This document shows positions 28,536-64,000 of a stretch of 64,000 nt of DNA, one piece after another. The position numbers were made by a program, and so were the translations under genes. The DNA is from Deltaproteobacteria bacterium (lineage in GTDB: Bacteria; Desulfobacterota; DSM-4660; Desulfatiglandales; HGW-15), in contig JAFDAM010000001.1 in the NCBI GenBank assembly GCA_019313825.1, positions 13,121 to 77,120 on the forward strand, in the 5' to 3' direction. Every line of letters begins with the position of its first letter. Within the stretch, counting starts at the first letter, position 1. The notes beneath the pieces are model-generated. The model saw nothing but the letters and a program-made list of their open reading frames with translations, made no database searches and had not been told where the DNA came from.

Positions 28536-28655
28536 GAATTAGACTAACCTTTTCAGACATAACCAATTTTCTCTGACTTCCCACAAGAGGCGGGAATCTT
28601 AGACACTCTCAGAGGACGTGGTTTTCCGGTTATAATAAAAAAGGAGTCGATCAAG

Positions 28656-35605: not shown

Positions 35606-36059
35606 GAAATTGCAATAATTGCAATTTTATTCTAAGAAACCTCTCAGAGTGCGGAGGACATTAATGGCCGGGGGAGACCCCTCGCCAAGGCTGTGTCCGA
35701 CTTTCAGAGATATTCTTATGGCAAGGAAAAGTGATTTGAAGGGAAGGAAAATTGGCGGGGAGAGACGACCATCAAAATCAACCATCGTCGTTCCTGCCGT
35801 ATAAAAACAAACCTGAAATACCTGCACTTTTTTCATTTTATTTAATAACCAAAACAACTGTTTTGGATCATTACAGTATAAAATATAGTGTACTTTTGCC
35901 CTTTATTTTGTGCACTATCACACAAGTTTATGTGCATTTAACTCCTATTCTTTCATGTATCAATCAATGAAAAACCCCTCATACCTCAGCTCTTCCTGAT
36001 GTCCTATTGCCCAGGCACATTCTGGCACAAATCTTGTAGATACTTTTCCGTAAAAACAA

Positions 36060-40412: not shown

Positions 40413-40435
40413 AAGAGTGTATTAACGATAGAAGG

Positions 40436-40537
40436 CGATGACTCTCTCTTCAAGACGATATCTTTTGGGGAATTCCACTGGCCCATGCGATGGTCAAATA
40501 GGTAGTAGATATTGTCTTGAAGAGATAGATATCGCCG
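40436..40537. repeat. Family A hairpin element, internally deleted copy 4
   Basis: The outer stems are retained (TCAAGACGATATCT ... AGATATTGTCTTGA). The core jumps from GGTCAAATA directly to GGTAGTAGAT. Confidence 0.75.
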
Positions 40538-40628
40538 GATTTCAATATATTATTCAGGCAAAGCCTATTGCCTCATACAAATCAACAGTCGAGGCTTGAC
40601 ACCAATGCCAACAGAAAGGGGTAAGGGA

Positions 40629-44237: not shown

Positions 44238-46358
44238 ATGATTCAAGCGACACTTTTTATGATGGGATTGGGTGCATTTTGCGGCCTTGTGCTGAGTGCC
44301 GCATCGCGAATATTCTACGTGTATGAAGATCCCCGAATCGAACTTGTGGAAGAATGCTTTGCCGGTGCCAACTGCGGTGGATGCGGTTTTGCCGGATGTT
44401 CTGCCGCTGCCGTAGCGGTAGTGAAAAATAAGGCCGCCCCTAATCTCTGTATAGTGGGTGGGGCGGAATCCGCAACAAACGTTTCAGACGTAATGGGCGT
44501 GGAGGCCGAATTGGCAGAGCCCTTAACCTGCTTTAATCCCTGTCAAGGCGGGGACCGTGCCCAAGATAAATTTATTTATATAGGCGTCAACAGTTGCAAA
44601 GCCCAGTCCATGCTTTACGGCGGCAAACGGACATGCGCGGTCGGATGCCTTGGGCATGGAGACTGTGTCCGGGCATGTATGTTTGATGCCCTGAAGATGG
44701 GACCGGATGGTTATCCGATTGTAGACGAGAAAAAATGCGTCGGGTGCGGCGCCTGTGAACGTGCATGCCCAAAAGAGATCCTGAATATAAAGACTCCTTC
44801 GGAACGGCTCCTTCATTTCAACCAGTACAGTGATCGTCTCGCCCCATGCAGACAGACCTGCCCCGCTGAGATAAACATCCCCCTCTATATAGCCCAGATC
44901 CGAGAAGGGGATTATGAGGGGGCGGTCCATACCATCAGGGAAAGGAATCCACTCCTCCTCTCCTGTGGCCGCGTATGCCCCCATCCCTGTGAAGACATCT
45001 GTCGTCGGGGAATAGAGGACGAAGCAGTATCCATCAACCAGCTTAAACGTTTTGCGGCAGACTATGAGATGACATCAGGTAAGCGTCTTCCAATATCTGT
45101 AGCCCCTTCCACAAATAAAAGGATTGCGGTGGTGGGTGGTGGACCTGCCGGGCTCAGTTGCGCTTACTTTCTGAGGAGATTGGGACATGATGTGACCATC
45201 TTTGAGGCAATGCAGAAGCTTGGCGGTATGATCCGTTACGGGATTCCTGAATACCGTCTTCCAAAAAAGATACTTGACTGGGAGATAGAAGGTATACTCA
45301 ATCTCGGTATAGAGAGTCATACAGGTGTAAGGTTCGGAATTGATTTTGATCTTACATCTCTTGTCGCCTCCGGTTATGATGCGATCTTTCTGGGTCTTGG
45401 CGCGTGGAAAGACTATACCTTGGGCGTTGAAGGCGAAGACCTTAACGGTTGTTACACTGGCATCGATTTTCTCTCAAGACTTACACGAGGAGAAAAAATA
45501 CCCATGGGTAAAACCGCGATTATCATTGGTGGTGGAAACTCTGCCATTGACTGTTCAAGAAATCTTCTTCGCTATGGGGTTGAAAAGGTCTATATTGTTT
45601 ATAGAAGAACCCGCAAAGAGATGCCCGCCAATGAGATGGAGATAGAGGCCGCAGAACATGAAGGCGTGGAGCTCTTCTTCCTCGCGGCGCCGGTGAGTGT
45701 TAAAAGCGATGAAGATGGAAATGTTACGCATCTTGAGTATCTTAAGATGGAACTTGGCGAACCTGATGCAAGCGGAAGACAAAGGCCGGTCCCGATTGAA
45801 GGCACGGAAACTCTTCTTCAGACCGATATGGTTATCACCGCCATTGGTCAGACCCCTGATATCTTTTTTAAAGACGATGAAACCCAGAAACGCCTTAATC
45901 AACTTAAGACTACCCGCTGGAACACTATAGATACGGACCCTGCTACACTTCAGAGCAGTATCCCTTATATATTCACAGCCGGTGATTCTGCCACAGGCCC
46001 TGCCCTTGTTGTTTCCGCCATTGGCGGAGGCCGCAGGGCAGCCCGTTCAATTCACCAGTTTGTAATGGGGGAAGAAGTTAAGGCATCGGATAATGAACTT
46101 TTCAACAAGAATATACCCGGAACCATATTTGACAAAGCAGAAGGTATTTCACGAAAATCCAGGTCCGCAATGGTAGAGCTTCCGGCAGCTGAAAGGATCA
46201 AGTCTTTTCTTGAAGTGGATCAAGTCCTGACAGAGGATGCTGCCGTTCAAGAGAGCCAAAGATGTCTCTCTTGCTGCCTGACATGTTACGACCCGGACCA
46301 GTACCTTACCAACATATCCCCCGCGGGCTACCATCGCAGTGAGTCAAAGGCCGCTTGA
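44238..46358 (+). CDS. Fusion protein: RnfB-like membrane-anchored Fe-S domain + 2x[4Fe-4S] ferredoxin + glutamate-synthase-small-subunit-like (GltD) NAD(P)H/FAD oxidoreductase
   Basis: N-terminal TM followed by CGGCGFAGC (RnfB-type), CVGCGACERACP, then GltD-like RIAVVGGGPAGLSCAYFL..YGIPEYRLPK and a second dinucleotide fold IIGGGNSAIDC. Confidence 0.8.
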   Translation: MIQATLFMMGLGAFCGLVLSAASRIFYVYEDPRIELVEECFAGANCGGCGFAGCSAAAVAVVKNKAAPNLCIVGGAESATNVSDVMGVEAELAEPLTCFNPCQGGDRAQDKFIYIGVNSCKAQSMLYGGKRTCAVGCLGHGDCVRACMFDALKMGPDGYPIVDEKKCVGCGACERACPKEILNIKTPSERLLHFNQYSDRLAPCRQTCPAEINIPLYIAQIREGDYEGAVHTIRERNPLLLSCGRVCPHPCEDICRRGIEDEAVSINQLKRFAADYEMTSGKRLPISVAPSTNKRIAVVGGGPAGLSCAYFLRRLGHDVTIFEAMQKLGGMIRYGIPEYRLPKKILDWEIEGILNLGIESHTGVRFGIDFDLTSLVASGYDAIFLGLGAWKDYTLGVEGEDLNGCYTGIDFLSRLTRGEKIPMGKTAIIIGGGNSAIDCSRNLLRYGVEKVYIVYRRTRKEMPANEMEIEAAEHEGVELFFLAAPVSVKSDEDGNVTHLEYLKMELGEPDASGRQRPVPIEGTETLLQTDMVITAIGQTPDIFFKDDETQKRLNQLKTTRWNTIDTDPATLQSSIPYIFTAGDSATGPALVVSAIGGGRRAARSIHQFVMGEEVKASDNELFNKNIPGTIFDKAEGISRKSRSAMVELPAAERIKSFLEVDQVLTEDAAVQESQRCLSCCLTCYDPDQYLTNISPAGYHRSESKAA

Positions 46359-46402
46359 TTCAGTCTGAGACTCTCCGTTTTGTCGGAAGGTAAACCGGTT
46401 TT

Positions 46403-46533
46403 CTGGATGGAGCGTTCAGCTCTCAGCGGTCAGCGGTCAGCCAAATACCTTGAAATTAAATGCCTTTTGCTGACGGCTGAATGCTGATAGCTGATAGCAT
46501 GAATCCAAAAACAGCTGTTTTTGGATGAACACT
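46403..46533. repeat. Inverted-repeat element, left copy (pairs with 62928-63067)
   Basis: Its reverse complement is collinear with the right copy (AGTGTTCATCCAAAAACAG.TGTTTTTGGATTCATGCTATCAG...CAGCCGTCAGCAAAAGGCATTT...GAACGCTCCATCCAG). Contains heptamer arrays cagcggt x2 and ctgatag x2. Confidence 0.85.
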
Positions 46534-46562
46534 ACTTCACTTTAGTCACTTATAACTTTCTT

Positions 46563-49022
46563 CTATTCATCCATTAATTTTGCCACTCCAACTACCTTCT
46601 CTCCTTCGCCCAGGTTAATCAGTTTTACACCCTGGGTGTTCCGGCCGATGACAGAGATATCCGCCACCCCCATCCTGATGATCTTCCCCTGTTCGGTAAT
46701 GATCATCAGCTCATCCTGATTAGCCACCTGATAGGAATAGACAACCGGTCCGTTTCTCTCCGTGGCCTTTATGGTCAGTATCCCTTTACCGCCCCTTGAC
46801 TGGCACCGGTATTCTTCTGTCTTGGTCCTCTTTCCAAATCCGTTCTCCGTAACAGTGAGGATCGTGGCCCCCTCCTTAAGAGCCTCCATCCCGACCGCTT
46901 CATCGTCAGGCTCCATCCGGATCCCGATGTTCCCCGCAGCCACCCTTCCCATACCCCTCAGGTCAGACTCCTTGAACCGGATGGATTTTCCCTGGCGTGT
47001 TGCTATAAAGATATCGTCTTCACCGCCTGTAACCCTCACACAGATCAGTTCATCGTCTTCATTGATCTTTAACGCGATAATGCCCTTGGTCCTCGGGTTG
47101 CTGTAAGCAATGAGTTCGGTCTTTTTGACCAGGCCCTTCTTTGTGGCCATGACAACGTACTTTGCATCCTCAAAGTCCCTGACATTCAGAGTGGTTGCTA
47201 CGCGCTCTCCCTTCTGTAGCTCAAGGAGGTTTACTATTGCCTTACCCCTTGCCATACGGCCCGCCTCTTGAATCTCGTGTACCTTCTTCCAGTAGACCCT
47301 GCCCTTGTTTGTGAAAAAGAGGAGATAATCAAGGGAGGAGGCTACAAAGAGGTGCTCAACAAAGTCCTCGTCCTTCGGCACAACACCGGTAAGGCCCTTT
47401 CCACCTCGGCGCTGTGCCCTGTAAAGGCTTATGGGGTTCCGCTTGATATAACCCCTGTGGCTCATGGTAACGACCATGTCCTCTTCGGCAATCAGGTCTT
47501 CAAGCCCTATCTCTCCGTCCTCTTCGAGGATCTCGGTCCTTCGCTCATCACCATAGAGTTTGGTGATCTCCTTCATCTCGTCCTTGATTATCTGAAGGAC
47601 CTTGTCCGGACTATCCATGATGGCCTTGAAGTGGGCAATATTTGTTATAAGCTCACTGTATTCAGCATCAATCTTCTCGCGCTCCAGGCCCGTAAGTCTC
47701 TGGAGTCTCAAGTTAAGGATCTCCTGGGCCTGGATATCTGTGAACTCAAACTCCTCGATCAGTCTTGCCTTTGCCTCCGCAGGATCAGATGAAGACCTGA
47801 TAAGAGCGATCACATCATCGAGAAAATCCAACGCCTTTTTATAGCCCTCAAGGATGTGTGCCCTGGCCTCGGCCTTATTGAGATCAAAAAGGGTCCTTCT
47901 TATTATGACCTCTCGGCGGTGATCGATGAATTGTTCCAGGATCTCCTTGAGGTTCAGGACCTGTGGCCTTCCCTTTACGATCGCGAGAAAGATGATCCCA
48001 AAAGAGATCTCCATCTGGGTGAACTTGTAGAGGCGATTAAGTATCACAAGGGCCTTTCCATCCCTCTTGACATCGATCACGATCCGCATACCGTCCCGGT
48101 CGGATTCATCCCTGATGTCTGATATCCCTTCAATTTTCTTGTTCTTTACAAGCTCCGCGATCTTCTCCAGAAGTCGTGCCTTATTAACCTGATAGGGAAT
48201 CTCCGAGACAATAACCCTCTCCAGGTTCTTGCCGACCATCTCGACAAAGGCCCTCGCCCGTATCTTGATAATTCCCCTTCCTGTTTTATAGGCCTCGGTT
48301 ATTCCCCTGCGACCAATGATAAATCCCGCTGTGGGAAAATCCGGACCCTGCACGACCCCTGTAAGTTCTCCCATGGAAATCTCAGGATTGTCGATCAGAT
48401 CGACTGTGGCACTACACACCTCACCAAGATTATGCGGAGGGATGTTTGTTGCCATACCGACGGCAATGCCTGATGATCCGTTTACCAGCAAGTTGGGTAT
48501 GCTTGTGGGAAGGACAAGCGGTTCAAGGAGAGAGTCGTCATAGTTTGGCCCGAAATCCACTGTCTCCTTCTCCAGGTCTGACAGGAAGTCCTGGGCAAGT
48601 CTGGTCATGCGGACTTCGGTATATCGCATTGCGGCAGCAGGATCACCGTCAACAGAGCCGAAATTCCCCTGCCCGTCTATAAGGGGGTACCTTAAAGAGA
48701 AGTCCTGGGCCATCCTTACGATCGTGTCATAGACCGCAACATCCCCGTGAGGGTGGTACTTACCTATTACATCACCCACAACGCGGGCCGATTTTTTATA
48801 CGGCCTGTTGTAGTAATTTTTCAGGTCGTGCATTCCAAACAATACACGTCTGTGTACCGGTTTCAGCCCATCACGAATATCGGGCAGCGCCCTCCCCACT
48901 ATCACACTCATGGAGTACTCGAGATAGGCCTTCTTCATCTCTTCTTCTATGTTTACAAAAGTAAAATTACCATTCGAGACCATTTCTATTCCCCAAAATT
49001 CAGGCGAAGAGCGTTCGGCCAA
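46563..49022 (-). CDS. gyrA: DNA gyrase subunit A
   Basis: [27 protein letters not shown], the active-site region AAMRYTE and C-terminal beta-pinwheel repeats. The exact start is uncertain (alternative Met 14 codons in). Confidence 0.95.
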
Positions 49023-49064
49023 AACAGACCTATCTTTTAGTTTTGACTTCCTGCCTTTCGCCTC

Positions 49065-51467
<2,403 letters not shown>

Positions 51468-52583
51468 CTATATCCTCATCGGCATAACCAGGCCTAAAAA
51501 ACCTTTATCTTCTTCACCTTTTATTAGACATGGGCTGGAATTATCTATTAGTCCCAGTTCAACAATATCACTATCCATAGACTGAAGCACATCTAAAAAA
51601 TACCGTGAATTAAAACCCATCTCAAGGTGTTCATCTTTATATTCCACTACTATATTATCCTGAGCATCTCCAAGATCGGGATTAATTGAAACAAGTTTTA
51701 GATTATTATCTTCCATAATAATTTTTACTCCCCTGTAACTCTCACTACTCAAGATAATCATTCTCTTCATACCATCTAATAGCTCCTTATTTTTTATCTT
51801 TACTTGATATTTAACAGCCTTAGGAATAACAGAATTATAATCAGGAAACTTAGTTTCTAAAAGTCTAATCACAATAAGAGAATTCCCTTTTCTAGCCACA
51901 CAATTATTCTTTTTAAACCCTAAAAATATCTTCTCACCTTTAGTTATTAATCTATCCAACTCCTGCATTCCTTTTTTTGGTATCATAACTCCGTTGTCTA
52001 TCTTTAGATCTTCAATATTCTCGATCTCTTTATCCATCATAGATAAGCGGTGTCCATCTGTCGAGACCATTCTTAGATATGTCTTTCCCTTTTTATCTAC
52101 CTTTTCTATATATATCCCTGAGAGTTTAAACCCTGCCTCCTCTAATGTTACGGAATATATGGTCTTATTAATCATCTCGCTTAATACATCTCCTTCTATT
52201 TCAACCATACTTACCCCTTCAGGTTCAACAAAGACGGGAAATTCTTCAGCCGGGAGACATGCCATATTATATTTTGTCTTATCATCTGATATAAATACCC
52301 AGTTATTTTCTTTCTCTTTTAAATAAATATCCTGACTTTTACTTTCCTTTAATATCTCAAATAATTTTCTACCTAATATGGTGATACTTCCTGGATTTAT
52401 GACTTCAGCCGGAATCGTCTGCTGAAGACTTATCTCTAAATCAGTGGCTGATATCTGTATTCCCGAATCAACAGTTGATAAAAGTATCATTGATAGAATA
52501 GGCATATTACTCCTCTTCTCAACAATACTTTGAACCCTGGAAAGAGATCCATAAAGTTCGTCCCTTTTAATCTTTATCTCCAT
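51468..52583 (-). CDS. dnaN: DNA polymerase III beta sliding clamp
   Basis: Three-domain clamp pattern and a C-terminal ..GLVMPMRI. Start at MEIKIKRDEL with GGAGGAG 6 nt upstream. Markedly AT-rich coding sequence. Confidence 0.9.
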   Translation of the reverse strand: MEIKIKRDELYGSLSRVQSIVEKRSNMPILSMILLSTVDSGIQISATDLEISLQQTIPAEVINPGSITILGRKLFEILKESKSQDIYLKEKENNWVFISDDKTKYNMACLPAEEFPVFVEPEGVSMVEIEGDVLSEMINKTIYSVTLEEAGFKLSGIYIEKVDKKGKTYLRMVSTDGHRLSMMDKEIENIEDLKIDNGVMIPKKGMQELDRLITKGEKIFLGFKKNNCVARKGNSLIVIRLLETKFPDYNSVIPKAVKYQVKIKNKELLDGMKRMIILSSESYRGVKIIMEDNNLKLVSINPDLGDAQDNIVVEYKDEHLEMGFNSRYFLDVLQSMDSDIVELGLIDNSSPCLIKGEEDKGFLGLVMPMRI

Positions 52584-52844
52584 ATGTATCTCCTCCATTC
52601 TAAATATTATTTTTATAGTATTAAATATTAATAATAATAATATATATTGTTACATTTTTAGAAACTTAATTAACTCATTGAAAATAGAATAAATTTATTA
52701 ATTAAAATTTAAACATAGATTCTATTGTTTTAAAATATATTAGTTAAAAAATTATATTTTTCTTCTTCTAAATAAAAATTTTGAAAGAGATAGAAAGTTT
52801 TTTTAAAAGTAGTGAAAAAAAGTATAGAAAGTATTTTATTAATA
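52584..52844. other. Extremely AT-rich dnaA-dnaN intergenic region (candidate DNA-unwinding/origin element)
   Basis: Almost pure A/T for ~250 bp. Direct repeat ATAGAAAGT x2 (about 52790 and 52824). No consensus TTATCCACA boxes seen. Confidence 0.35.
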
Positions 52845-54152
52845 TCAGTTTAAAAAATTTTCAATATTATTAATATCTTCCCTTATATCTTTTCTTTTGT
52901 TTTTTAATTTATCTATCTTTTTAACCGCGTAGATTATTGTTGAGTGATCTTTATCTCCATATAGATATCCAATCTCAGAAAAAGAAAGATCTGTATGTTT
53001 TCTGCATAGATACATAGAAATATGTCTTGGGTAAGAATAAAACCTCTTTTTTTTATCAGAAATAAGCTCAGATACTGAGATATTAAAATACCCGGACGTA
53101 ATAGATTGTATATCTTTTACACTTAACTTAATACCTTTATTATTTTTAATAATAGATTTTATCATAGAGATATTAATATCTCCGTTATTCAGAGATGAAT
53201 AAGTTTCAAATCTAACAATATTTTTTAATAAACTTTTTATATTATCATTGGTTTTAACTAATAAAGATATTATATCCTTTGGAATATTAATTTTATTCTC
53301 TTTTATTTTTCTTTTAATAATATTTAATTTTGTATTTTGATCATATTCCTTAATCTCGATTAAAAGACCCCATCCTAATCTCGACTTTAATTGAGAATTA
53401 ATATTATTGATTCTGTTTAAAGGTCTGTCTCCGGTTACGACAATCTGTTTGTTTTCCATGTATAGATCATTAAATATAGAGAGAAATTCTTCCTGTACCC
53501 TTTTTCGGTTGGAGATATGTTGAATATCGTCAAATAATAATATATCTATATTAAGATATTTTTCTCTAAATTTATCAAAAATATTATTTCTTACTGAATA
53601 ATTATAATCAGACAGAAAGGTTTTAGATGATACATATCCTATTCGAAAATAAGGATCTTTATTAAGTATCTGATTACCTATTGCATTTAATAGATGAGTC
53701 TTACCAAGGCTTAGATTAGAAAAGATGTAGATAGGGTTATAATGGTTTCCCGGTCTATTAGCCACTTCAAAAGATGAGGAAAAGGCAAACCTATTACACT
53801 CCCCTATTATAAAACTGTCAAAAGTCATAGATATGTTTATATTATATTTAAATAAATCTGATTGTTTGGTTTGCTGTGGCTGAGATGATATGACTGTGGT
53901 TGACGGGTTATTATGTGAAAAGACTATCTCAGGAGCCTCTTTTAGTATCCGTTTAAAAGATTGTTTTATCTCTTCGAGGTAGTTATCGCGTAACCATTTG
54001 ATAATGAACTTGTTTGGGACCCCTATAATTGCGACATTATTATCCAGTTTATTAAGGGTTATCTGTGAGAACCATGTTTCAAATTCAGGTCTGGGTATTC
54101 GCTGTTTTAGACTTCTTGTGATCTGGTCCCAAATCCCAATTTCTGTTGACAT
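52845..54152 (-). CDS. dnaA: Chromosomal replication initiator DnaA paralogue 2 (canonical synteny, very AT-rich, atypical P-loop and Arg-finger region)
   Basis: Walker B LLFDDIQHI, SLGKTHLLNAIGN, RL.WGL and domain IV DKDHSTIIYA. The P-loop starts SNLSLGKT, and the box VII position reads NIKSLLKNI (Lys where Arg is expected). Confidence 0.85.
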   Translation of the reverse strand: MSTEIGIWDQITRSLKQRIPRPEFETWFSQITLNKLDNNVAIIGVPNKFIIKWLRDNYLEEIKQSFKRILKEAPEIVFSHNNPSTTVISSQPQQTKQSDLFKYNINISMTFDSFIIGECNRFAFSSSFEVANRPGNHYNPIYIFSNLSLGKTHLLNAIGNQILNKDPYFRIGYVSSKTFLSDYNYSVRNNIFDKFREKYLNIDILLFDDIQHISNRKRVQEEFLSIFNDLYMENKQIVVTGDRPLNRINNINSQLKSRLGWGLLIEIKEYDQNTKLNIIKRKIKENKINIPKDIISLLVKTNDNIKSLLKNIVRFETYSSLNNGDINISMIKSIIKNNKGIKLSVKDIQSITSGYFNISVSELISDKKKRFYSYPRHISMYLCRKHTDLSFSEIGYLYGDKDHSTIIYAVKKIDKLKNKRKDIREDINNIENFLN

Positions 54153-54252
54153 ATTAAGATATTAACCTATATGTTTTATTAAGATAAAAATAAATTAATT
54201 TTAGAAAATTTTTAGTGGAATATCAACTAAAAATTTCTAAAAGGAGGATATA

Positions 54253-55002
54253 ATGACGTACTCTATTGGACTTGCCGGGAAAGGTGGAACCGGCAAGACA
54301 ACCATTGCAGGTCTGTTGATCAAATATCTCAATGAAAAAGGGAAGATTCCGGTCCTGGCAGTAGATGCAGATTCAAATGCCAATCTGAATGAGGTCCTGG
54401 GGCTTGAGGTCACGGAGACCCTTGGAGACGCAAGGGAAGAGATGAAGAAAGGTGTCTCTACTGGTATGACAAAAGATATATTTATGGAGATGAAACTGGG
54501 GGAGGCGGTTGTTGAGACAGAAGGCTTTGACCTTATCGTCATGGGTAGGCCTGAAGGGAGTGGTTGTTATTGTGCGGCCAACACATTACTTACCCAGTAT
54601 CTTGACAGATTAATAGATAATTATTCATGTGTAGTAATAGACAATGAAGCGGGGATGGAACATATCAGCAGGCTGACCACCAATAACATCGACCTACTTC
54701 TGATCATCTCCGATGCGTCACGAAGAGGCATCCTGTCCGCTGCCAGGATATCTGCTCTGACAGATGATTTGGGATTGAATATAGGAAATAAACTATTTAT
54801 TATTAATCAAGTGAAAGAGGGACAAGAGGAGGCATTAAAAAAGGCTGCGGATGAGCATCAACTGGAACTGGCCGGTATCATACCTGAGGACGACCTGGTA
54901 CGGGAATTTGATCTAAAGGGTAGACCTACAATTGAGCTTGACAAAAAGAGTAATGCCTTTAAGGCGGCATATGAGGTCTTTGATAGGATAATAGACATAT
55001 AA
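54253..55002 (+). CDS. cooC: CODH/ACS nickel-insertion accessory ATPase CooC/AcsF
   Basis: Deviant Walker A GKGGTGKTT and CooC-type CxC (GSGCYCAAN). RBS AAGGAGG. Confidence 0.85.
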   Translation: MTYSIGLAGKGGTGKTTIAGLLIKYLNEKGKIPVLAVDADSNANLNEVLGLEVTETLGDAREEMKKGVSTGMTKDIFMEMKLGEAVVETEGFDLIVMGRPEGSGCYCAANTLLTQYLDRLIDNYSCVVIDNEAGMEHISRLTTNNIDLLLIISDASRRGILSAARISALTDDLGLNIGNKLFIINQVKEGQEEALKKAADEHQLELAGIIPEDDLVREFDLKGRPTIELDKKSNAFKAAYEVFDRIIDI

Positions 55003-55089
55003 AATCAATATATAGTGTTGTTATAACAATAAAACTCAATATATAGTTTTTTACCTATATAAACAGCTCGTTTTATTGAGAAAAACTGC

Positions 55090-55118
55090 TTGACAAGAAA
55101 CACGTTGGAATCTATATG
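55090..55118 (+). promoter_or_regulatory. Sigma-70-like promoter candidate upstream of acsD
   Basis: TTGACA-17 nt-TATATG. Preceded by a direct repeat TCAATATATAGT x2 (about 55006 and 55037). Confidence 0.35.
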
Positions 55119-55273
55119 TTACTGTCTGAACCCTCTTGAAAAGGGTTTATTTTTTTGTTATGCTTTGTTATATTTTTCACATAAAAACAAGTGTCATAAT
55201 TTCAATAAGTTACCATACTTAACAATCGGAATCCAAGAATTTTTTTATAATCCAAATAAAGGAGGTAAAGAAA

Positions 55274-56824
55274 TTGGCCTTTGAAATTCCAAAACAACCC
55301 TATTCCGGAGAGATAGGAGAGACCACCATCGGTACAGGTAAGGGCGCTGTTACGCTGGGAGGGGAAGATTCATACCCTTTCCATACCTTTGAAGGAAAGA
55401 TGCCGAACCCTCCAAAGATCGCCATGGAGGTCTGGGATTACGATCCAACAGAGGAGTGGCCGGCAGCGGCAGTTGAGCCCTTTAAGGATGTAATATCATC
55501 GCCGGATGCATGGGCAAAAAAATGTGTTGATGAACATGGGGCTGACATGATAGTGCTCCAACTAAAGAGTACCGACCCCAACGGAATGGACAGGGGTGCG
55601 GACGAGGCCGCTGAAGTAGCGAAAAAGGTGGCTGATGCCGTTGACGTGCCGCTGGTCTTATGGGGTACGGCAAATAACCAGAAAGACGAAGAGGTCCTTA
55701 AAAAGATCTCAGAGGTATGTGAAGGGAAAAATGTGGCGCTTGGTCCGGTTGAAGAGGGGAATTACAAGGCAGTCGGTGCAAGCGCCTTGGGTTATAATCA
55801 CATTATTATCTCATCATCACCCATTGACGTGAATCTGGCCAAGCAGTTGAATATTCTCCTTGGAAACCTCGGGGTCCAGAGCAATAAAATCATCATAGAT
55901 CCCACGACAGGCGGACTCGGTTACGGCATGGAATACGGCTACTCCGTCATGGAGCGGATCCGTATGGCTGCCCTGACACAGGAAGACGAAAAACTCCAGA
56001 TCCCCATGATCAACAATATAGGTAATGAGGTATGGAAGTGCAAGGAGGTCAAGCAGCCCATAGATGAGGCCCCTGCGCAGGGTGACCCGGAGAAACGGGC
56101 TATCATGATGGAGGCGACAGCCGCTGTATGTTATCTGCTTGCCGGATCTGATGTGGCCATCCTCAGGCACCCTGAGAGCGTGCGTCTGACCCGTTCTTTC
56201 ATCGATCTCATGATCAACGGCGGTATGGCCACCGACGTTACGGAGATTGCAAAGAACCTGGACCTTGAAGAGGCTGATCTGACTGCCATATCGCCTGAGC
56301 CGAACCTTGACTTTGGTGAAAAAGAGGCATCCAGAGAGAAGCCTGCCAAGCCCAAGAAGAAGGAAGCGCCCAAGCCCAAAAAGGAAGCAAAGACGGCCGC
56401 GCCCAAACTCAAGAAGAAGGAAGAGCCTAAGGTAAAGGCCAAAGATGAGGCCAAGGCAAAGGCCGAGGATGAGGCCAAGGCAAAGGCCGAGGATGAGGCC
56501 AAGGCAAAGGCCGATGCCGACGCCAAGGTAAAGGCCGAAGAGGGTGCCAAGGCTGAGGCGGATGCTAAGGCAAAGGCCGACGCTGCGGCAAAGGCCGAAG
56601 ATGATGCCCGGAAAAAGGCCGAGGCCGACGCCAGGGCAAAACGCGAGGCTGGAGAGGATGAGCAGAGGCAGAAGAGGGCGGCTGAGCGGGAAAAACTCGC
56701 GGCAGAGAGAAAAAAGGTCCCTGAAAAGCCTGATACAATGACCCCTGCGGCTGTGCAGAAGACAGAGCAGGAAAAGATATTAGAGCATCTGAACAGGATA
56801 CACAGGAGAATACCTTTATATTAA
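55274..56824 (+). CDS. acsD: Corrinoid iron-sulfur protein small subunit (AcsD/CdhD type) with a ~190-aa Lys/Ala/Glu-rich C-terminal extension
   Basis: TTG start after AAAGGAGGT. The N-terminal ~330 aa are AcsD-like (TIM-barrel pterin-binding-like, ..LVLWGTAN.., ..IIDPTTGGLGYG..). The tail is low-complexity AKAKAEDE repeats. Confidence 0.8.
   Translation: MAFEIPKQPYSGEIGETTIGTGKGAVTLGGEDSYPFHTFEGKMPNPPKIAMEVWDYDPTEEWPAAAVEPFKDVISSPDAWAKKCVDEHGADMIVLQLKSTDPNGMDRGADEAAEVAKKVADAVDVPLVLWGTANNQKDEEVLKKISEVCEGKNVALGPVEEGNYKAVGASALGYNHIIISSSPIDVNLAKQLNILLGNLGVQSNKIIIDPTTGGLGYGMEYGYSVMERIRMAALTQEDEKLQIPMINNIGNEVWKCKEVKQPIDEAPAQGDPEKRAIMMEATAAVCYLLAGSDVAILRHPESVRLTRSFIDLMINGGMATDVTEIAKNLDLEEADLTAISPEPNLDFGEKEASREKPAKPKKKEAPKPKKEAKTAAPKLKKKEEPKVKAKDEAKAKAEDEAKAKAEDEAKAKADADAKVKAEEGAKAEADAKAKADAAAKAEDDARKKAEADARAKREAGEDEQRQKRAAEREKLAAERKKVPEKPDTMTPAAVQKTEQEKILEHLNRIHRRIPLY
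56444..56515 (+). repeat. Three tandem 24-nt coding repeats (GATGAGGCCAAGGCAAAGGCCGAG) inside the acsD tail
   Basis: Perfect x2 plus one copy with one end mismatch. Encodes (DEAKAKAE)x3. Confidence 0.9.
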
Positions 56825-57027
56825 TAAAATCATTTCATGATTTTATATAACGCGGCTTCGCCGCTCTAAGCTTCGCCATGGGCGGAGCGTTATATAAAAT
56901 TGCGTAGCAATTTTATCCCTGTGCACGGCACGGGGTATTCTGGCTGAGTTATTTTGAAAGTCCCGCGAAACGGGACGTTACATGAAATCGTGTAGCGATT
57001 TCATAAAACTATGAGGAGGAACCTCTG
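56825..57027. repeat. Mosaic of small hairpin modules in the acsD-acsA intergenic spacer
   Basis: AAAATCATttcATGATTTT; a GC unit AACGCGGCTTCGCCGC..GGCGGAGCGTT; AAAATTGCgtaGCAATTTT; CCCTGTGCACGGCACGGGGTATTCTGGCT (also at 36895-36927); GTCCCGCGAAACGGGAC; GAAATCGtgtaGCGATTTC. Confidence 0.8.
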
Positions 57028-59055
57028 ATGGCAGAAGAGAAAAAAGAAAAGGCAGCCAAACCGTTGAAACTAGCTGATCCGGTCGCGGCTTCCATGGATG
57101 TGGCAACCCAGGAGATGATAGTGCGATCCCATGACCTGGGTATAGAGACGGTCTTTGACAGGGCCCAGACAATGAAACCATGTAATATCGGAATCCAGGG
57201 CACATGCTGTAAGAATTGTTCCATGGGTCCATGCCGCCTTCCCTTGCCCAAGAGCGGGATAGAGGGGGAAGACACACGAAAAGGCCTTTGTGGCGCCACG
57301 GCCAACACCATCGCTGCGCGTAATTTTATCAGGATGATCGCCGGCGGCGCCGCGGCGCACTCCGATCACGGCCGCTGCGTTGCAGAGGTCTTTATGTCGG
57401 CTGCTCGAAAAGAGACAGAAGCCTATAAGATAAAGGACACGGTAAAACTCCTTGCAATCGCCCCACATCTCGGCGTCGAGACTACGGTTGAGGTTGATGG
57501 CGAGACAAAGGACAGGGATATCGATGAGATCGCCCTTGAAGTGGCTGAAAAGGCCCTTAACGAATGGGGCAAGGCAGAAGGTGAGCTGCTCTACCCTAAG
57601 AGAGCCCCGGAGGCGTTGTATGAGAAGTGGAAAAAGAACGGTGTGCTTCCCAGGAACATAGACAGGGAGATTGTTGAGATCATGCACCGAACCCACATGG
57701 GCGTTGACCAGGACTACAGGAACCTGATCAAGCAGGGCACCAGGGCGGCCATTGCGGACGGCTGGGGCGGCTCCATGCTGGCGACGGACCTTCAGGACGT
57801 TCTCTTCGGGACACCATCACCTATCTTGTCGGAAGCGAACCTCGGTGTCATGAAGGAGGACCATGTAAACATCATTGTACACGGACATGAGCCCGTATTA
57901 TCCGAGATGATCGTGGCTGTCTCCCAGAAGCCGGAGATAATAGAGTATGCCAAATCCAAGGGTGCCAAGGGCATCCAGTTGGGCGGTATATGCTGTACAG
58001 CCAATGAGATCCTACAGCGTCACGGGATCCCCACTGCGGCGACATTCCTCCAGCAGGAGCTCGCCATCATCACAGGGGCGTGCGATGCTATGGTTGTGGA
58101 TATCCAGTGTATCTTCCAGAACCTTGCAAACGTTGCAAAGTGCTTCCACACCAAGCTGATTACCACCCATCCCATAGCCAAGATGGAGCAGGACAACGTC
58201 ATCCACATCGAGTTTGACGAGCATCACGCGCTTGAGGACGCCGAGAGGATCATCAGGATGGCAATCGATAACTTTGAAAACAGAGGCACTGAAGTTATGA
58301 TACCGAAACACAAGGCGACCCAGGTCGCTGGTTTCGGTGTTGAATCCATAGAGTACCACCTCGGCGGTACATTCCGCGGCTCATATTACACCTTGAACGA
58401 TAATATAATCAATGGCCGCATCCGGGGTATCGCCGGCGTGGTGGGTTGCAACAACGCCAGGACAAGACACAATGAAGGCCATATCACGGTCGTAAAAGAG
58501 CTGATCAAGAACGACGTGATAGTGCTTACAACCGGTTGCAACGGCATCGCCTGTGCCATGGAGGGGCTGCTGACACCCGAGAGCGCCGCTGTCCATTGCG
58601 GTCCCGGCCTGGCAGAGGTCTGCGAGACAGTAGGTATTCCGCCTGTCCTGCACCTCGGATCATGTGTCGATAATAGCCGTATCCTGCTGGCCGCAACAGA
58701 GGTGGTAAAGGCAGGAGGACTCGGAAATGACATCTGTGATCTGCCTGTCGCAGGCAGCGCCCCTGAGTGGATGAGCGAAAAGGCCATCAGCATCGGTCAT
58801 TATTTCGTTGTGTCAGGCGTGTATACGGTCTTCGGCGTCACCCTGCCCACATCAGGTGCACCAGTATTCCATAACTACATCAGCAAGGATCTGGAGAAGA
58901 TCTACGGTGGGATGTGGGATATCGAGCCTGACCCGATTAAGCACGCACGGCTTATGATCGCCCATATCGACAAGAAACGTAAGGAACTCGGCATAGACAA
59001 GGCCAGAGAGAGGGTTCTTATGGATATGGCGGATCGCCAGGCCTTGGACGCTTAA
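57028..59055 (+). CDS. acsA: Carbon monoxide dehydrogenase catalytic subunit (AcsA/CooS type)
   Basis: N-terminal Cys clusters (CNIGIQGTCCKNCSMGPCRL), C-cluster ligand regions (HGHEP, GGICCTANE, GCNN, GSCVDN). Confidence 0.92.
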   Translation: MAEEKKEKAAKPLKLADPVAASMDVATQEMIVRSHDLGIETVFDRAQTMKPCNIGIQGTCCKNCSMGPCRLPLPKSGIEGEDTRKGLCGATANTIAARNFIRMIAGGAAAHSDHGRCVAEVFMSAARKETEAYKIKDTVKLLAIAPHLGVETTVEVDGETKDRDIDEIALEVAEKALNEWGKAEGELLYPKRAPEALYEKWKKNGVLPRNIDREIVEIMHRTHMGVDQDYRNLIKQGTRAAIADGWGGSMLATDLQDVLFGTPSPILSEANLGVMKEDHVNIIVHGHEPVLSEMIVAVSQKPEIIEYAKSKGAKGIQLGGICCTANEILQRHGIPTAATFLQQELAIITGACDAMVVDIQCIFQNLANVAKCFHTKLITTHPIAKMEQDNVIHIEFDEHHALEDAERIIRMAIDNFENRGTEVMIPKHKATQVAGFGVESIEYHLGGTFRGSYYTLNDNIINGRIRGIAGVVGCNNARTRHNEGHITVVKELIKNDVIVLTTGCNGIACAMEGLLTPESAAVHCGPGLAEVCETVGIPPVLHLGSCVDNSRILLAATEVVKAGGLGNDICDLPVAGSAPEWMSEKAISIGHYFVVSGVYTVFGVTLPTSGAPVFHNYISKDLEKIYGGMWDIEPDPIKHARLMIAHIDKKRKELGIDKARERVLMDMADRQALDA

Positions 59056-59090
59056 TTAATAAATAATAATCCTCAACGAAGGAGGAAGAT

Positions 59091-61304
59091 ATGTCAAAGT
59101 TAGTAGCATTTGCTGCCATTCAGGGCGGCTACAAGGTTGTTTCAACGGTCGAGGGTGAATTGCGAAACGCCCTCGATAGTTATGATGCAAGCACAAAGAT
59201 AGGGTTTCCGAATACAGCCTATTACCTTCCGGTTATCTATTCACTGACCGGCATGAAGTGTGAGACCCTTGAAGACCTTCAGAAACCCATGGAATTTGCC
59301 CACGGACTTCTTCCGCCGCATATAAAGAGCAAGAACCACCTGCCCTATCTCGGGCCGCTTCTGGACGCGGGCATGGCAGCCATCTTTGCCTATGAGGTAA
59401 AAGAGGCGTTGCGTATTCTAAGGGAGCCGGACTTCTATATCGCAGAGGAAGACCCGGACCTTGATGCGGGAAAGATGTGGGTAGGCCCGGCTGATGACAC
59501 GATCCTCAGAAAGAGGGGTGTTGAGTTTGTTGACGGTTCCGCCCCGGGTTTTGCCGCAATCGTGGGCGCTGCGCCTGATCCGGAGATCGCCAAGATGATA
59601 GTTGAAGACTACCAGAAGAAGAGTCTCTATATCTTCTGTGCCGCGAACCACAATGGCAGGACCCTTATTGAGCAGTGTATCGAGGCAGGCATGCAGGTCG
59701 GCTGGAATACGAGGATCGTTCCCTTCGGACCGGACATCTCGTCCGCCGTATTTGCCCTCGGTTTTGCCAACAGGGCCGCGATGGCATTCGGCAATGTCCA
59801 GCCCGGTGACCATAGCAAGATGCTCATGTACAACAAGGACAGGATCTTTGCCTTTGTCAACGCCCTGGGTGATATCGGGACGGAATGGGCCTGCGCTGCC
59901 GCAGGATGCGTAAACTGGGGTTTCCCCACACTTGCGGACACGGATATCCCGGAGATCCTCCCCACCGGTATCTGTACATACGAGCACGTGGTGGCAAACG
60001 TGCCCCATGACGAGATGTGCCAGAGGTCGGTTGAGGTCAGGGGCCTGAAGGTCACCATAGCCGAAATCGATATCCCATGCTCCTTTGGTCCTGCCTTTGA
60101 GGGAGAACGCGTAAGGGGCGCTGACCTGTATGCCCAGTGCGGGGGCGGCAAGAGCCAGTGTACGGAGCTCGCCAAGATGGCCGACATGAAGGAGATAGAG
60201 GACGGAAAGGTCGAGGTTGTCGGACCGGAACTGAATGAAGTCGAAGAAGGAGGCATCTTTCCGCTGGGCATCTATGTCCAGTGTGCGGGCCGTGAATTCC
60301 AGACCGATTTTGAGCCGATCCTGGAACGCCAGATCCATCACCTGGTCAACTATATCCAGGGCATCATGCACATAGGACAGAGGGATATCGCATGGATCCG
60401 AGTGAGCAAGGCGGCCGTTGACAAGGGCTTTTCCATAAAGGATATCGGCACCGTGATTCACGCCAAGTTCCATCAGGATTTCAAAAAGATCATAGACAAG
60501 GTCCAGGTAACCCTCTACACCAAGAAGGATGACGTAGACGCGCTGACAAAGAGGGCCAGGGCCGAATACAAGACAAGGGATGAGCGCGTGGAGAACATGA
60601 GGGACGAGGATGTGGAGACCTACTACTCATGCACCCTCTGCCAGTCATTTGCCCCATCCCACGTCTGTTCCGTAAGCCCTGAAAGGACGGGGCTCTGCGG
60701 TGCGTATAACTGGATGGACTGTAAGGCATCATATGAGATCAATCCCACGGGACCCAACCAGCCCATTGAGAAGGGAGAGTGCCTTGACCCGGTGCTGGGC
60801 CAGTGGAAGGGTGTCAACGAGTTTATTGAAAAGGCGTCCAGGGGCACCGTCACCCATTACAACTTCTACTCCATGCTGCTCGATCCCATGACCACGTGCG
60901 GCTGCTGTGAGTGTATCGCGGCAGTGCTGCCGTCATGTAACGGCGTGATGACCGTGCACAGGGATTATCGTGGCGAAACCCCCTGCGGCATGAAGTTCAC
61001 GACCCTGGCAGGTGTCATGGGCGGCGGCGCTGCTTCGCCGGGCTTTGTGGGTCACTCCAAGTTCAATATTACCCAGGGCAAGTTTATCCTGGGGGACGGC
61101 GGACTCCTGAGAATGGTATGGATGCCCAAGTCCTTGAAGGAGGAGATCAAGGAGAGGATCGATAAACGCGGCGCGGAGATGGGTTGTCCTGATCTGTATG
61201 ACAGGATCGCCGATGAGACGGTTGGAATCACAGAGGACGAGATTCTTCCTTTCCTCCGGGAGAAGGAGCATCCGGCCGTGAAGATGGATTCCATTGTGGG
61301 TTAA
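59091..61304 (+). CDS. acsB: CO-methylating acetyl-CoA synthase (AcsB, bacterial alpha subunit)
   Basis: A-cluster motifs (SCTLCQSFAPSHVC...GLCG, CGCCEC) and the typical ~730-aa length. Confidence 0.92.
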   Translation: MSKLVAFAAIQGGYKVVSTVEGELRNALDSYDASTKIGFPNTAYYLPVIYSLTGMKCETLEDLQKPMEFAHGLLPPHIKSKNHLPYLGPLLDAGMAAIFAYEVKEALRILREPDFYIAEEDPDLDAGKMWVGPADDTILRKRGVEFVDGSAPGFAAIVGAAPDPEIAKMIVEDYQKKSLYIFCAANHNGRTLIEQCIEAGMQVGWNTRIVPFGPDISSAVFALGFANRAAMAFGNVQPGDHSKMLMYNKDRIFAFVNALGDIGTEWACAAAGCVNWGFPTLADTDIPEILPTGICTYEHVVANVPHDEMCQRSVEVRGLKVTIAEIDIPCSFGPAFEGERVRGADLYAQCGGGKSQCTELAKMADMKEIEDGKVEVVGPELNEVEEGGIFPLGIYVQCAGREFQTDFEPILERQIHHLVNYIQGIMHIGQRDIAWIRVSKAAVDKGFSIKDIGTVIHAKFHQDFKKIIDKVQVTLYTKKDDVDALTKRARAEYKTRDERVENMRDEDVETYYSCTLCQSFAPSHVCSVSPERTGLCGAYNWMDCKASYEINPTGPNQPIEKGECLDPVLGQWKGVNEFIEKASRGTVTHYNFYSMLLDPMTTCGCCECIAAVLPSCNGVMTVHRDYRGETPCGMKFTTLAGVMGGGAASPGFVGHSKFNITQGKFILGDGGLLRMVWMPKSLKEEIKERIDKRGAEMGCPDLYDRIADETVGITEDEILPFLREKEHPAVKMDSIVG

Positions 61305-61482
61305 TAAAATTGCTATGCAATTTTATAGAACGCACCGCCTGCGGCGGAGCACAGAGCGGCGAAGCCGTATTATAGAAAAATATGTTATACAATTTTATAC
61401 AACGCTCCGCCTGCGGCGGAGCTTAGAGCGGCGAAGCCGCATTATATAAAATCGTGAAACGATTTTATTAGAGGAGATAATT
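61305..61482. repeat. Alternating AT-hairpin / GC double-hairpin modules in the acsB-acsC spacer (two tandem GC units)
   Basis: AAAATTGCtatGCAATTTT; [CGCACCGCCtgcGGCGGAGC..GCGGCgaaGCCG]; ..; [CGCTCCGCCtgcGGCGGAGCTTAGAGCGGCgaaGCCGC]; AAAATCGtgaaaCGATTTT. The GC unit is the reverse complement of the one at 56848-56894. Confidence 0.85.
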
Positions 61483-62826
61483 ATGGGATTAACCGGAATT
61501 CAGATCTTTAAATTGTTGCCCAAGACAAACTGTGCGGAGTGCGGTGTTCCAACATGTCTGGCCTTTGCAATGAACCTGGCATCAGGAAAGGCGGAGCTGG
61601 ACGATTGCCCCTATGTGTCTGATGAGGCAAAAGAGCAACTGGCAGAGGCCTCGGCGCCCCCGATCAGGCCGGTCGCGATCGGCGCAGGAGACAGGGCCTT
61701 CAAGTCCGGCGGTGAGACGGTTTTGTTCAGGCATGAGAAAACCTTTTATAACCCCACTGGTCTTGCCGCCATGATAAGCTCTGACATGGACCTGGGGGAC
61801 CTGGATAAGAAGCTGAAGGAATGGAATGCCCTTCAGTACGAGAGAGTCGGTCTGAACCTGAGGCCCGAGCTCGTTGCCCTGAAGGACGCAGGTGACGCCG
61901 CTGCATTTGCAGCTGCCGCTAAAAAGATCGCCGAAGAGAGCGAGTTCGGCCTCGTCCTGATGAGTGAGAACGCGGACGCCATAAAGGCCGCGGTCGAGGC
62001 GAGCGCCTTCAAGAAGCCGATCATCTATGTTGCGACAGCAGACAATGCGGATGATATGGGTGCTATTGCCAAGGACAGCAATGTGCCCCTTGCGATAAAG
62101 GCTGACAATGTGGAGGGCCTGATCGCCTTGAGCGACAAGCTGACAGGCATGGGCCTTAAGGACCTGATCCTTGATTCAGGATCAAGGGAGATGAAGCAGC
62201 TATTTGAGGACCAGGTTGCCATCAGAAGGGCGGCCCTCAGGGGCGGGAACAAGTCTCTTGGTTTTCCAACCATCACCTTCCCGTGCGAGATGGCCTCGAA
62301 CCTTGATATGGAGACCATCATAGCCTCCATGCTGATCGCCAAGTATGCGGGCATAGTGGTGCTCTCGGATTTCAAGGGCGAGAACGTATTCCCGCTGCTC
62401 CTGGAGAGGTTGAACATATTTACCGATCCGCAGAGACCAATGACCGTTACCCAGGGTATCTACGAGATCGGCAGCCCGGATGAGAACTCACCGGTGCTGG
62501 TCACCACCAATTTCTCCCTGACCTACTTTATTGTCAGCGGTGAGATCGAGGCGAGCAGGGTCCCGAGCTGGCTACTCATCCTGGATACAGAGGGGCTTTC
62601 GGTCATGACCGCGTGGGCCGCGGGCAAGTTCTCAGGCGATGTTGTGGGCATGTTCGTCAAGAAGTGCGGTATTGCGGACAAGGTAGCCCACAAGAAGATC
62701 ATCATCCCAGGCTATGCCGCAGCCATAGCCGGCGAAATGGAAGAGGAGCTTCCTGACTGGGATATCATGATCGGGCCCAGGGATGCGGCGCTGATAACAA
62801 AGTTTCTTAAAGATAACTGGAAATAA
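61483..62826 (+). CDS. acsC: Corrinoid iron-sulfur protein large subunit (AcsC/CdhE type)
   Basis: N-terminal [4Fe-4S] motif KTNCAECGVPTCLAFA...CPY, a TIM-barrel middle and a C-terminal B12-binding-like domain. Confidence 0.9.
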   Translation: MGLTGIQIFKLLPKTNCAECGVPTCLAFAMNLASGKAELDDCPYVSDEAKEQLAEASAPPIRPVAIGAGDRAFKSGGETVLFRHEKTFYNPTGLAAMISSDMDLGDLDKKLKEWNALQYERVGLNLRPELVALKDAGDAAAFAAAAKKIAEESEFGLVLMSENADAIKAAVEASAFKKPIIYVATADNADDMGAIAKDSNVPLAIKADNVEGLIALSDKLTGMGLKDLILDSGSREMKQLFEDQVAIRRAALRGGNKSLGFPTITFPCEMASNLDMETIIASMLIAKYAGIVVLSDFKGENVFPLLLERLNIFTDPQRPMTVTQGIYEIGSPDENSPVLVTTNFSLTYFIVSGEIEASRVPSWLLILDTEGLSVMTAWAAGKFSGDVVGMFVKKCGIADKVAHKKIIIPGYAAAIAGEMEEELPDWDIMIGPRDAALITKFLKDNWK

Positions 62827-62927
62827 GTATAAAAGATGGTTAATTGTTATCTGTTATTGGTTAATTGTACGCGATGACCCATTACAGTTCGAAGCCGGTG
62901 TTGTTAAATAGCTGATAACTGATAACT

Positions 62928-63067
62928 AGTGTTCATCCAAAAACAGGTGTTTTTGGATTCATGCTATCAGTCCCGCTACAGCGGGACATTCAGCCGTCAG
63001 CAAAAGGCATTTCATTACAAGGGATTTGGCTGATCGCTGACCGCTGAGATCTGAACGCTCCATCCAG
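62928..63067. repeat. Inverted-repeat element, right copy (pairs with 46403-46533), carrying an extra CCCGCTACAGCGGG mini-hairpin
   Basis: Collinear with the reverse complement of the left copy. A 17-nt insertion TCCCGCTACAGCGGGAC lies at about 62970-62986. Flanked by heptamer arrays at 62838-62870, 62909-62927 and 63093-63118. Confidence 0.85.
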
Positions 63068-63127
63068 ATTTTCTTATTTCTGGATGGCAACCAACTAATA
63101 ACCGATAACTATAACAGAGGAGAAAGC

Positions 63128-64000
63128 CAATGTTACTGATCGGAGAAAACCTGAATGTCATTAGCAGGGTTATTGGCAAGGCATTTAAGGAGATGGATCC
63201 CGGCCCCATAGCCCAGGAGGCCAAGCTCCAGCAGGAAAAGGGCATGGACTGGATCGACATCAACCTGGGTCCCGCAAGAAAGGGCGGGCCTGAGTTGATG
63301 GAATTCGTAGTGAAGACGGTCCAGGAAGAGATCGGCGATTCCATACCTCTATGCCTTGATACTTCAAACATCGAGGCCATGGAAGCGGGCCTGGCCGTCC
63401 ACAAGGGAAAGGCCATAATCAACTCCATCATGTGCCGGCCTGAGCGCTATGAGAAGATGATACCCCTGGCGGTCAAGTACCAGGCATGCATGATCGCCCT
63501 TATGTGGGGGCCGGATGGTCTACCCAGGGACGAGAACGAAAGGGGCGCCCTGGCAGCCGAGCTTATCTATGCCGCCAATGAGGCAGGGGTCCCGAACGAG
63601 GATATATTTGTGGACGGTATCGTTACACCGGTGAATATCCAGCAGCCCCAGCTCTTGAGTCTTCTGGCTTTTCAGGAGATGTTGCAGGATATGTTCCCTG
63701 GAGTAAAATCCACCTGCGGGCTCTCCAATATCTCCAACGGGCCGCCGGAAGATCTCAGGTCTATACTGAATACGACCTATCTGGTGATGTTGGAGAGGAA
63801 AGGAATGTACTCCTGTATTGCCGATGCATATGATGATGCTCTGATAGCCGTGGCCGGGGGTGAGAGGTCGGATATTGTAGACCTTATTCATAAGGTCATG
63901 GACGAAGAGGGTCCTGACATTGGATCTCTCTCAAAAGAGCTTCAGGACTATGTCAAGACAGCCAAGGTGATCCTGGGCCATTCCCTGTATTCGGATTCCT
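63128..64000 (+). CDS. acsE: Methyltetrahydrofolate:corrinoid/iron-sulfur protein methyltransferase (AcsE), 3' end outside the window
   Basis: Absent from the ORF track because there is no stop in the window. Hand translation from the ATG after AGGAG gives MLLIGENLNVISRVIGKAF...DINLGP...LCLDTSN...INSI..., an open frame of 291 codons with a pterin-binding fold. Confidence 0.85.

Follow-up and report, generated by a model that had tools for sequence, protein, structure and literature searches.

The inverted pair in the window

The window, i.e. the whole 64-kb stretch of Desulfobacterota DNA analyzed here, contains two short non-coding repeats in inverted orientation, located on either side of a block of genes running from gyrA, through dnaA, to acsC. 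All positions are given in window coordinates, and labels starting with "L" indicate the loci and contigs used for comparison. Between 44 and 64 kb all genes are housekeeping ones: an oxidoreductase with RnfB/FeS and GltD-like portions (44238-46358, plus strand; hereafter the RnfB-GltD gene) is followed, on the minus strand, by gyrA (46563-49022), gyrB (49065-51461), dnaN (51468-52598) and dnaA (52845-54152) and, on the plus strand, by cooC (54253-55002), acsD (55274-56824), acsA (57028-59055), acsB (59091-61304), acsC (61483-62826) and acsE (from 63130). The left repeat is found between the RnfB-GltD gene and gyrA, the right one between acsC and acsE. [quoted passage not shown]

A repeat search of the window identifies the left copy (46402-46537, plus strand) as the reverse complement of the right one (62924-63068), in two pieces: I3, 82 nt long and 94% complementary (46402-46483 and 62987-63068), and I7, 47 nt long, at 96% (46491-46537 and 62924-62970). 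When aligned pairwise, the copies are collinear as one element, with an identity of 88%, indel counted, over 134 aligned nt; the longest unbroken identical run is 26 nt. Search and alignment both confirm the two inverted, collinear repeats of about 130 bp reported in a first-pass annotation of the same DNA. The single large difference is a GC-rich mini-hairpin of the right copy, TCCCGCTGTAGCGGGA (62971-62986, minus strand), which is found in no other family member. Its presence had been correctly noted; it is, however, 16 nt long and takes the place of about 7 nt of the left copy, rather than being a plain insertion of 17 nt. Two long sub-patterns of the repeat occur at exactly two window sites each, where none is expected (100 shuffles), and no third copy is detected in the window by either blastn or nhmmer at low stringency. 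The two copies are also mutual closest relatives, their 88% identity comparing with 67-85% to all other family members.

The genes bracketed by the pair (gyrA, gyrB, dnaN, dnaA, cooC, acsD, acsA, acsB and acsC) are those originally listed. The midpoint of the repeats, at 54.73 kb, falls 0.5 kb from the dnaA/cooC spacer (54153-54252), and the right copy occupies a gap inside the acs operon, where the acsC-acsE spacer measures 303 nt; both had been observed before.

A family of short intergenic elements

A family hidden Markov model (HMM) was built solely from the window copies and three matches in relatives (two in L018, one in L007). Family elements, delimited by aligning them along with their flanks, are 146-165 bp long and non-coding: the only open reading frame (ORF) overlapping any copy is a spurious antisense one, across the acsE start. 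The termini are GTGTCCATCCATAAA at the 5' end and, in inverted orientation, TTTTTGGATGAACAC at the 3' end; these terminal inverted repeats (TIRs) match at 14 of 20 nt, and at 13 of the first 15. On both sides of the elements are 6-bp direct repeats with the pattern TANNTA (TAATTA, TAGTTA, TAGGTA, TAAATA, TATCTA, TATTTA), the central dinucleotide being variously AT, GT, GG, AA, TC or TT. The two flanking 6-mers are identical at all six positions in 8 of 13 copies; over the 12 well-delimited copies, 67 of 72 flank positions agree, where an offset control gives 16 of 72. The data are compatible with a duplication of 6 bp, or of 2 bp inside a TANNTA target. A duplication of TA only, as for IS630-like elements, was rejected, as each target would need to have contained a 4-nt tandem repeat beforehand.

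The consensus fold consists of three hairpins. In the 5' hairpin the pairing partner of the terminal motif is its own inverted copy, located internally, while the 3' hairpin holds the 3' terminal motif. Both ends of the element fold onto a second copy of this motif in the interior, forming two terminal hairpins. The central hairpin is long and imperfect, being composed of TCAGCNN and NNGCTGA heptamers, in numbers which differ among family members.

The right copy is complete, 163 bp long (62929-63091, minus strand), covering positions 1-153 of the family HMM; the family alignment and the table of terminal repeats and target duplications give the same limits. It thus runs about 25 nt past the end originally assigned to it, to 63091, or to 63097 with the target duplication, and the left copy has no matching 5' end. 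On the minus strand, its 5' target-site duplication, TAGTTG (63092-63097), matches at 5 of 6 positions the TAGTTA (62923-62928) that flanks its 3' end. The 5' terminal hairpin, CCATCCAGAAA...TTCTGGATGG (63060-63087), holds most of the 5' TIR (63072-63091); the central heptamer hairpin, with TCAGCNN and NNGCTGA units, is located at 62987-63055; the 3' terminal hairpin is the palindrome ATCCAAAAACACCTGTTTTTGGAT (62935-62958), and the 3' TIR ends at 62929. The terminal repeats of this copy match at 13 of 20 positions. If the right copy and one duplication are removed, the acsC-acsE spacer is restored to an unbroken 7-nt register, GTTATAG TTATCGG TTATTAG TTGTCAG TTATCAG, i.e. (TTATNNG)n, which is direct evidence that the element entered a heptamer array already present: the right copy is intact, and was inserted in the array of the acsC-acsE spacer.

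Tandem TTATNNG heptamers form intergenic hairpins at 62840-62925 and 63092-63125, both within the acsC-acsE spacer. Other heptamers are similarly arranged elsewhere: GGTTCAN in the window (5910-6022 and 36058-36506) and CAGGATA in L001 (11350-11440). In this clade, spacers seem generally to carry heptamer arrays.

The left copy (46399-46532, plus strand) is 5'-truncated: only positions 22-153 of the family HMM are covered, in agreement with the alignments. It retains the central heptamer hairpin (46415-46498) and the 3' terminal sequence, the perfect palindrome ATCCAAAAACAGCTGTTTTTGGAT (46503-46526), with the 3' TIR ending at 46532. A 5' terminal repeat and a target duplication are missing, or are not recognizable. 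This copy, an older remnant, has lost its 5' end and is, for this reason, presumably immobile.

In L004 two genes coding for proteins with cyclic nucleotide (cNMP)-binding domains are located between the RnfB-GltD-like gene and gyrA (12098-13583), and in L005 two such genes separate the RnfB-GltD-like gene from rnf genes (12119-13600). They are absent from the spacer of the window (46359-46562) and from L012; in the window, the truncated MITE is found in the spacer so shortened.

Sensitive searches of the relatives' loci find L018 copies in the cooC-acsD and cooC-dnaA spacers, and an L007 copy in the acsD-acsA spacer. In a metagenome collection, an 18-nt motif shared between species, GATAGCRTGAATCCAAAA, has 50 matches. 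Full-length copies, with E values from 1e-20 to 1e-35, are present in L088, L089, L091, L098, L103, L112, L115, L125, L127, L134 and L136, and a near-full copy in L096 leads to at least 12 metagenome contigs, eight of them from metagenome Ga0209287. All of the 18 copies examined are intergenic, lying between ORFs of at least 120 amino acids. The metagenome copies have unrelated housekeeping genes as neighbors, including those for a methyltransferase and a Glu/Leu dehydrogenase; a C1 peptidase; a radical-SAM (S-adenosylmethionine) protein and a cyclophilin; a YdbH-like protein; an oxaloacetate decarboxylase beta subunit; a SPOR protein; a carboxylase subunit; an acyl-CoA dehydrogenase; and a FadB-like protein (3-hydroxyacyl-CoA dehydrogenase/enoyl-CoA hydratase).

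The element is also polymorphic for presence at orthologous sites, since relatives with the same gene order lack it at both window locations. The acsC-acsE spacer, without the element, is 98 nt long in L001, 96 nt in L142 and 59 nt in L143, and no element is found between gyrA and the RnfB-GltD gene in L012.

L038 carries a subfamily, featuring the family termini and TANNTA duplications (TAAATA, TATTTA) around a different interior. Its two copies (12460-12625 and 13818-13982) are in direct orientation on either side of gpsA, immediately downstream of gyrA, in a composite-like arrangement. This is the only pair of termini found to enclose an ORF; as the gene enclosed is gpsA, and not a transposase, the pair was rejected as a parent insertion sequence (IS).

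A 29-bp unit, composed of just the two terminal motifs, GTGTCCATCCATAGTTTCCGGATGAACAC, is present in L072 (18742-18770), from a metagenome-assembled genome (MAG) labeled Pelobacter. It may be either a minimal element or an excision remnant.

Insertion, RNA signal or inversion

Prokaryotic MITEs are described as elements shorter than 500 bp, with TIRs of 4-30 bp and flanking direct repeats, found at AT-rich intergenic sites (PMC10969869). The sequences described here are short and non-coding, with TIRs (within the window, in the right copy alone), target duplications and dispersed intergenic copies: they constitute a MITE family not described before, from uncultured Desulfobacterota. With known prokaryotic MITEs (PMC10969869, PMC3184786, PMC11602168) the family shares size, lack of coding capacity, TIRs, direct target duplications, location in AT-rich intergenic spacers, strong secondary structure, the large number of dispersed copies and presence or absence at orthologous sites. 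In contrast, its sequence matches nothing in Rfam or in a plasmid collection, its TANNTA duplication, either 6 bp or 2 bp within, could not be assigned to any known IS family, its ends carry a second, fold-back terminal motif, and its core is a heptamer hairpin with a variable number of units.

By analogy, the element may work like those of the Correia, ERIC or RUP type, with which, as with anything else searched, it shares no sequence. The Correia repeat-enclosed elements of Neisseria are similar in size and feature TIRs, an intergenic, often intra-operon location, and transcripts able to form hairpins. They duplicate TA, and have 26-bp repeats unrelated in sequence to the family termini. Promoter and RNase III activities have been shown for Correia elements. 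A further possible likeness is with the heptanucleotide STRR repeats of cyanobacteria, and the MITEs containing them, where the arms of intergenic hairpins are made up of tandem 7-nt units. The window likewise has several heptamer arrays (TCAGCNN, TTATNNG, GGTTCAN); both phylum and unit sequences differ.

Insertion of these elements would require a transposase, supplied in trans, able to recognize the terminal repeats and to insert the element at TANNTA sites in AT-rich spacers, duplicating either all 6 bp or the central 2 bp. A putative parent element would be bounded by GTGTCCATCCATAAA...TTTATGGATGGACAC, with TANNTA duplications. Both the inverted orientation of the window copies and their rough symmetry would then follow from the position of usable spacers beside the dnaA-gyrA and acs gene blocks.

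A few points weigh against two independent MITE insertions. No autonomous IS with the family termini, and no transposase, was found, searching the window and 1.8 Mb of compared loci for termini 0.5-3 kb apart. Copy number in the source genome is known only as two per 64 kb. The copies from GTDB relatives all come from loci chosen around gyrA, so that a preference for the origin region is possible. Finally, the left copy would count as an insertion by homology alone. Searches directed to other collections were negative: the full element has no BLAST match in the plasmid collection, a scan of viral contigs for the terminal repeats gives five chance matches only, and the 3' palindrome, scanned as an exact sequence, has no match in either the genome or the metagenome contigs, neither of which includes the source genome. 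The literature searched contains nothing relevant on MITEs of Desulfobacter relatives, on ISDol1, on a TANNTA target or on 6-bp target-site duplications. ISDol1 is an ISNCY group, with duplications of 6-7 bp; a link of this group to the element is a possible lead.

Alternatively, the element might be primarily a selected, cis-acting RNA signal, such as a 3'-end stabilizer, a processing site or attenuator of the acs operon, or a small RNA. This would agree with the folding of single copies, which on either strand is far better than that of shuffled sequences (z about -5.2 to -5.9), with the three-hairpin consensus kept across the family and with the transcription of the right copy within the operon. 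Correia, ERIC and REP elements do have such effects. A compensatory change is found in one pair only (U-A to G-C, in the 5' terminal hairpin of the right copy, and in L098), so that covariation, almost none of which is available, says little about selection at the RNA level. Rfam, searched over the window at gathering score and over 62800-63140 at E <= 1, gives no match; a consensus terminator scan finds no terminator-like site, with its U tract, in either copy; a consensus promoter scan finds nothing above the number expected in shuffles. Moreover, copies are located at unrelated loci and in different spacers in each species, are absent from the same spacers of relatives, and are marked as insertions by their target duplications. 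A selected RNA signal is, accordingly, an unlikely explanation for the element as such. Effects of an inserted MITE are a separate matter: by analogy with other bacterial MITEs and REPs, the acs mRNA would probably form stable hairpins between acsC and acsE, which could alter its processing or stability.

The first-pass annotation had proposed that homologous recombination between the copies would invert the segment about the origin of replication. The pair would then be maintained, or act, as a substrate for inversion of the 16.5-kb dnaA segment, and the chromosome would exist as two isomers. As a kind of event this is reasonable: the copies are inverted, and their distances from the dnaA/cooC spacer are about 7.7 and 8.8 kb; MITEs have been described as recombination hotspots, and Correia elements are known to give rise to local rearrangements and inversions (PMC10969869); inversions symmetric about the origin are the commonest bacterial rearrangement, and may be mediated by inverted repeats such as rRNA operons or IS copies (PMC9584773), with a geometry, on opposite sides of a dnaA region, like that of the window copies. 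The proposal finds no support here, the copies being those of a dispersed MITE, the relatives' gene order being the same and the substrate poor.

As to the substrate, at 88% identity with the indel, no more than 26 nt of unbroken identity and one copy truncated, the two sequences would be expected to recombine very poorly. For RecA-dependent exchange in E. coli, 26 nt is at the lower limit reported, and divergence suppresses exchange further. Known mediators of origin-symmetric inversions are long, near-identical repeats on the kilobase scale, unlike the 134-nt repeats of the window. A recombinase or invertase gene, as expected for an invertase-type switch, was found neither in nor beside the segment, when window ORFs were scanned. 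Inversion would also part acsE from the acs operon.

As to gene order, about 30 species (GyrA 72-80% identical) feature the acs / dnaA-dnaN-gyrB-gyrA arrangement. L001 and L142, whose AcsC is 86-87% identical, have dnaN-dnaA followed by the divergent genes cooC-acsD-acsA-acsB-acsC-acsE. In L012 gyrA and the RnfB-GltD gene are immediate, convergent neighbors, which is the window arrangement; the two are convergent in L004 too, where the RnfB-GltD gene is located on the far side of gyrA-gyrB-dnaN-dnaA. No inverted isomer is seen among relatives: acsE is downstream of gyrA in none of the 23 that share synteny and have at least 2.4 kb sequenced there, a weak test, as most of them lack the repeats. 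A dispersed repeat, with no inverted isomer in relatives, is what the annotation itself had indicated as contrary to its proposal, and this is, for the most part, what was found.

The symmetry is not statistically notable either. Spacers of at least 100 nt number four or five to the right of dnaA, while the first to the left is the gyrA 3' spacer; as few usable spacers are available on each side, near-symmetry this close is not notable, and its occurrence by chance is estimated, from the gene map, at about 1 in 4. Measured from the dnaN-dnaA spacer, the copies are 6.3 and 10.3 kb away. This spacer, with 12% GC, is a better candidate for an unwinding region than the dnaA/cooC one. A second full-length dnaA paralog, with DnaA_N, Bac_DnaA and Bac_DnaA_C domains, is located at 15553-16959 (minus strand), 37 kb from the first, and a box scan finds no DnaA-box cluster at 52.6-54.3 kb: the assignment of the origin is thus uncertain, and the label "origin-proximal" is no more than plausible for the segment. 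On the whole, inversion as the reason for the pair is improbable, to a somewhat greater degree than an RNA signal. There is also a slight chance that the copies recombine at low frequency, producing a minority isomer, with the dnaA-gyrA/acs block flipped about the origin and acsE and the following genes moved from the acs operon to a place downstream of gyrA; the Wood-Ljungdahl operon would then be affected by a structural polymorphism due to MITEs. By analogy, the element may be regarded as a substrate for ectopic recombination of very low probability.

REP, BIME and REPIN sequences, mobilized by RAYT proteins, are also dispersed, extragenic and hairpin-forming, and the present element could, like them, stabilize the upstream mRNA in operons. 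A palindromic element of the REP/REPIN type, or derived from IS200/IS605, moved by a tyrosine (Y1/RAYT) transposase, would account for the long imperfect hairpin of the core, for the hairpins at both ends and for the dispersed intergenic copies. REPs are smaller, however, and elements of these types insert without TIRs or target duplications, both of which the family has; nor is any Y1_Tnp match found among the window ORFs scanned. Such an origin is highly unlikely.

The probability that metagenome assembly produced the inverted pair, or the orientation of the segment between its copies, as an artefact is next to negligible: the DNA comes from a MAG, in a contig of 85,368 bp, and assemblers can be misled by repeats, but 26 nt of exact shared sequence is below the usual assembly k-mers, and both junctions reproduce the gene adjacency common to independent assemblies of relatives, which argues against a misassembled orientation.

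With two independent insertions of a MITE family as the preferred explanation, the apparent origin-bracketing inverted repeat turns out to be, very probably, ordinary transposon debris, and a false lead is removed. The family definition may be used for masking repeats, for searching cognate transposases and for flagging repeats that break assemblies in these MAGs. The spacers of the acetyl-CoA synthase operon have, in this genome, been invaded by small repeats more than once, which could affect the stoichiometry of Wood-Ljungdahl enzymes.

The dnaA genes and other repeats

The dnaA paralog is also present in L009, L019, L023, L030, L033, L034, L037, L041-L043, L047 and L052. These relatives have it on the strand opposite to gyrA, 0.1-6 kb downstream of that gene, whereas 30 kb separate the two genes in the window, where they share a strand. 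The difference in both distance and strand implies a rearrangement.

The dnaN-dnaA region (51468-54152) is poor in GC: 28% for the dnaA gene beside dnaN, 33.5% for dnaN and 12% for their spacer, within a neighborhood of 46-55%. GC content falls stepwise from gyrA (50%) to dnaA, and the dnaA of relatives is similar, with 28.5% in L001 (1-2521) and 31.8% in L004 (18535-21189). The DnaA protein encoded next to dnaN is unusually divergent, with identities of 32-58% where GyrA is 72-80% identical.

Three acs spacers, acsD-acsA, acsB-acsC and acsC-acsE, are enlarged in the window, being much shorter in L001 (41, 113 and 98 nt, respectively). A repeat family different from the MITE is present in the first two (56822-56917 and 61304-61470), with inverted arms 83-85% identical; in the acsB-acsC spacer it includes two tandem 72-nt units (61306-61449). 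The two locations form a second inverted pair, bracketing acsA-acsB. Within acsD, at 56390-56664, a coding 12-nt tandem repeat gives rise to a low-complexity stretch rich in Lys, Ala, Glu and Asp.

Outside this region, an inverted repeat is located at 21375-21614 and 37150-37390, with a length of about 240 nt (209 nt at 89% and an adjacent 33 nt at 97%). Its arms, 15.5 kb apart, are longer and better matched than those of the MITE pair. Another dispersed family, about 215 nt long and featuring internal inverted 30-mers, GGCAATGGCTGTCTTTTCAAGGCGATATCT, has three to five copies in the window, at sites including 4708-4923, 28350-28566, 23716-23870 and 40432-40567.

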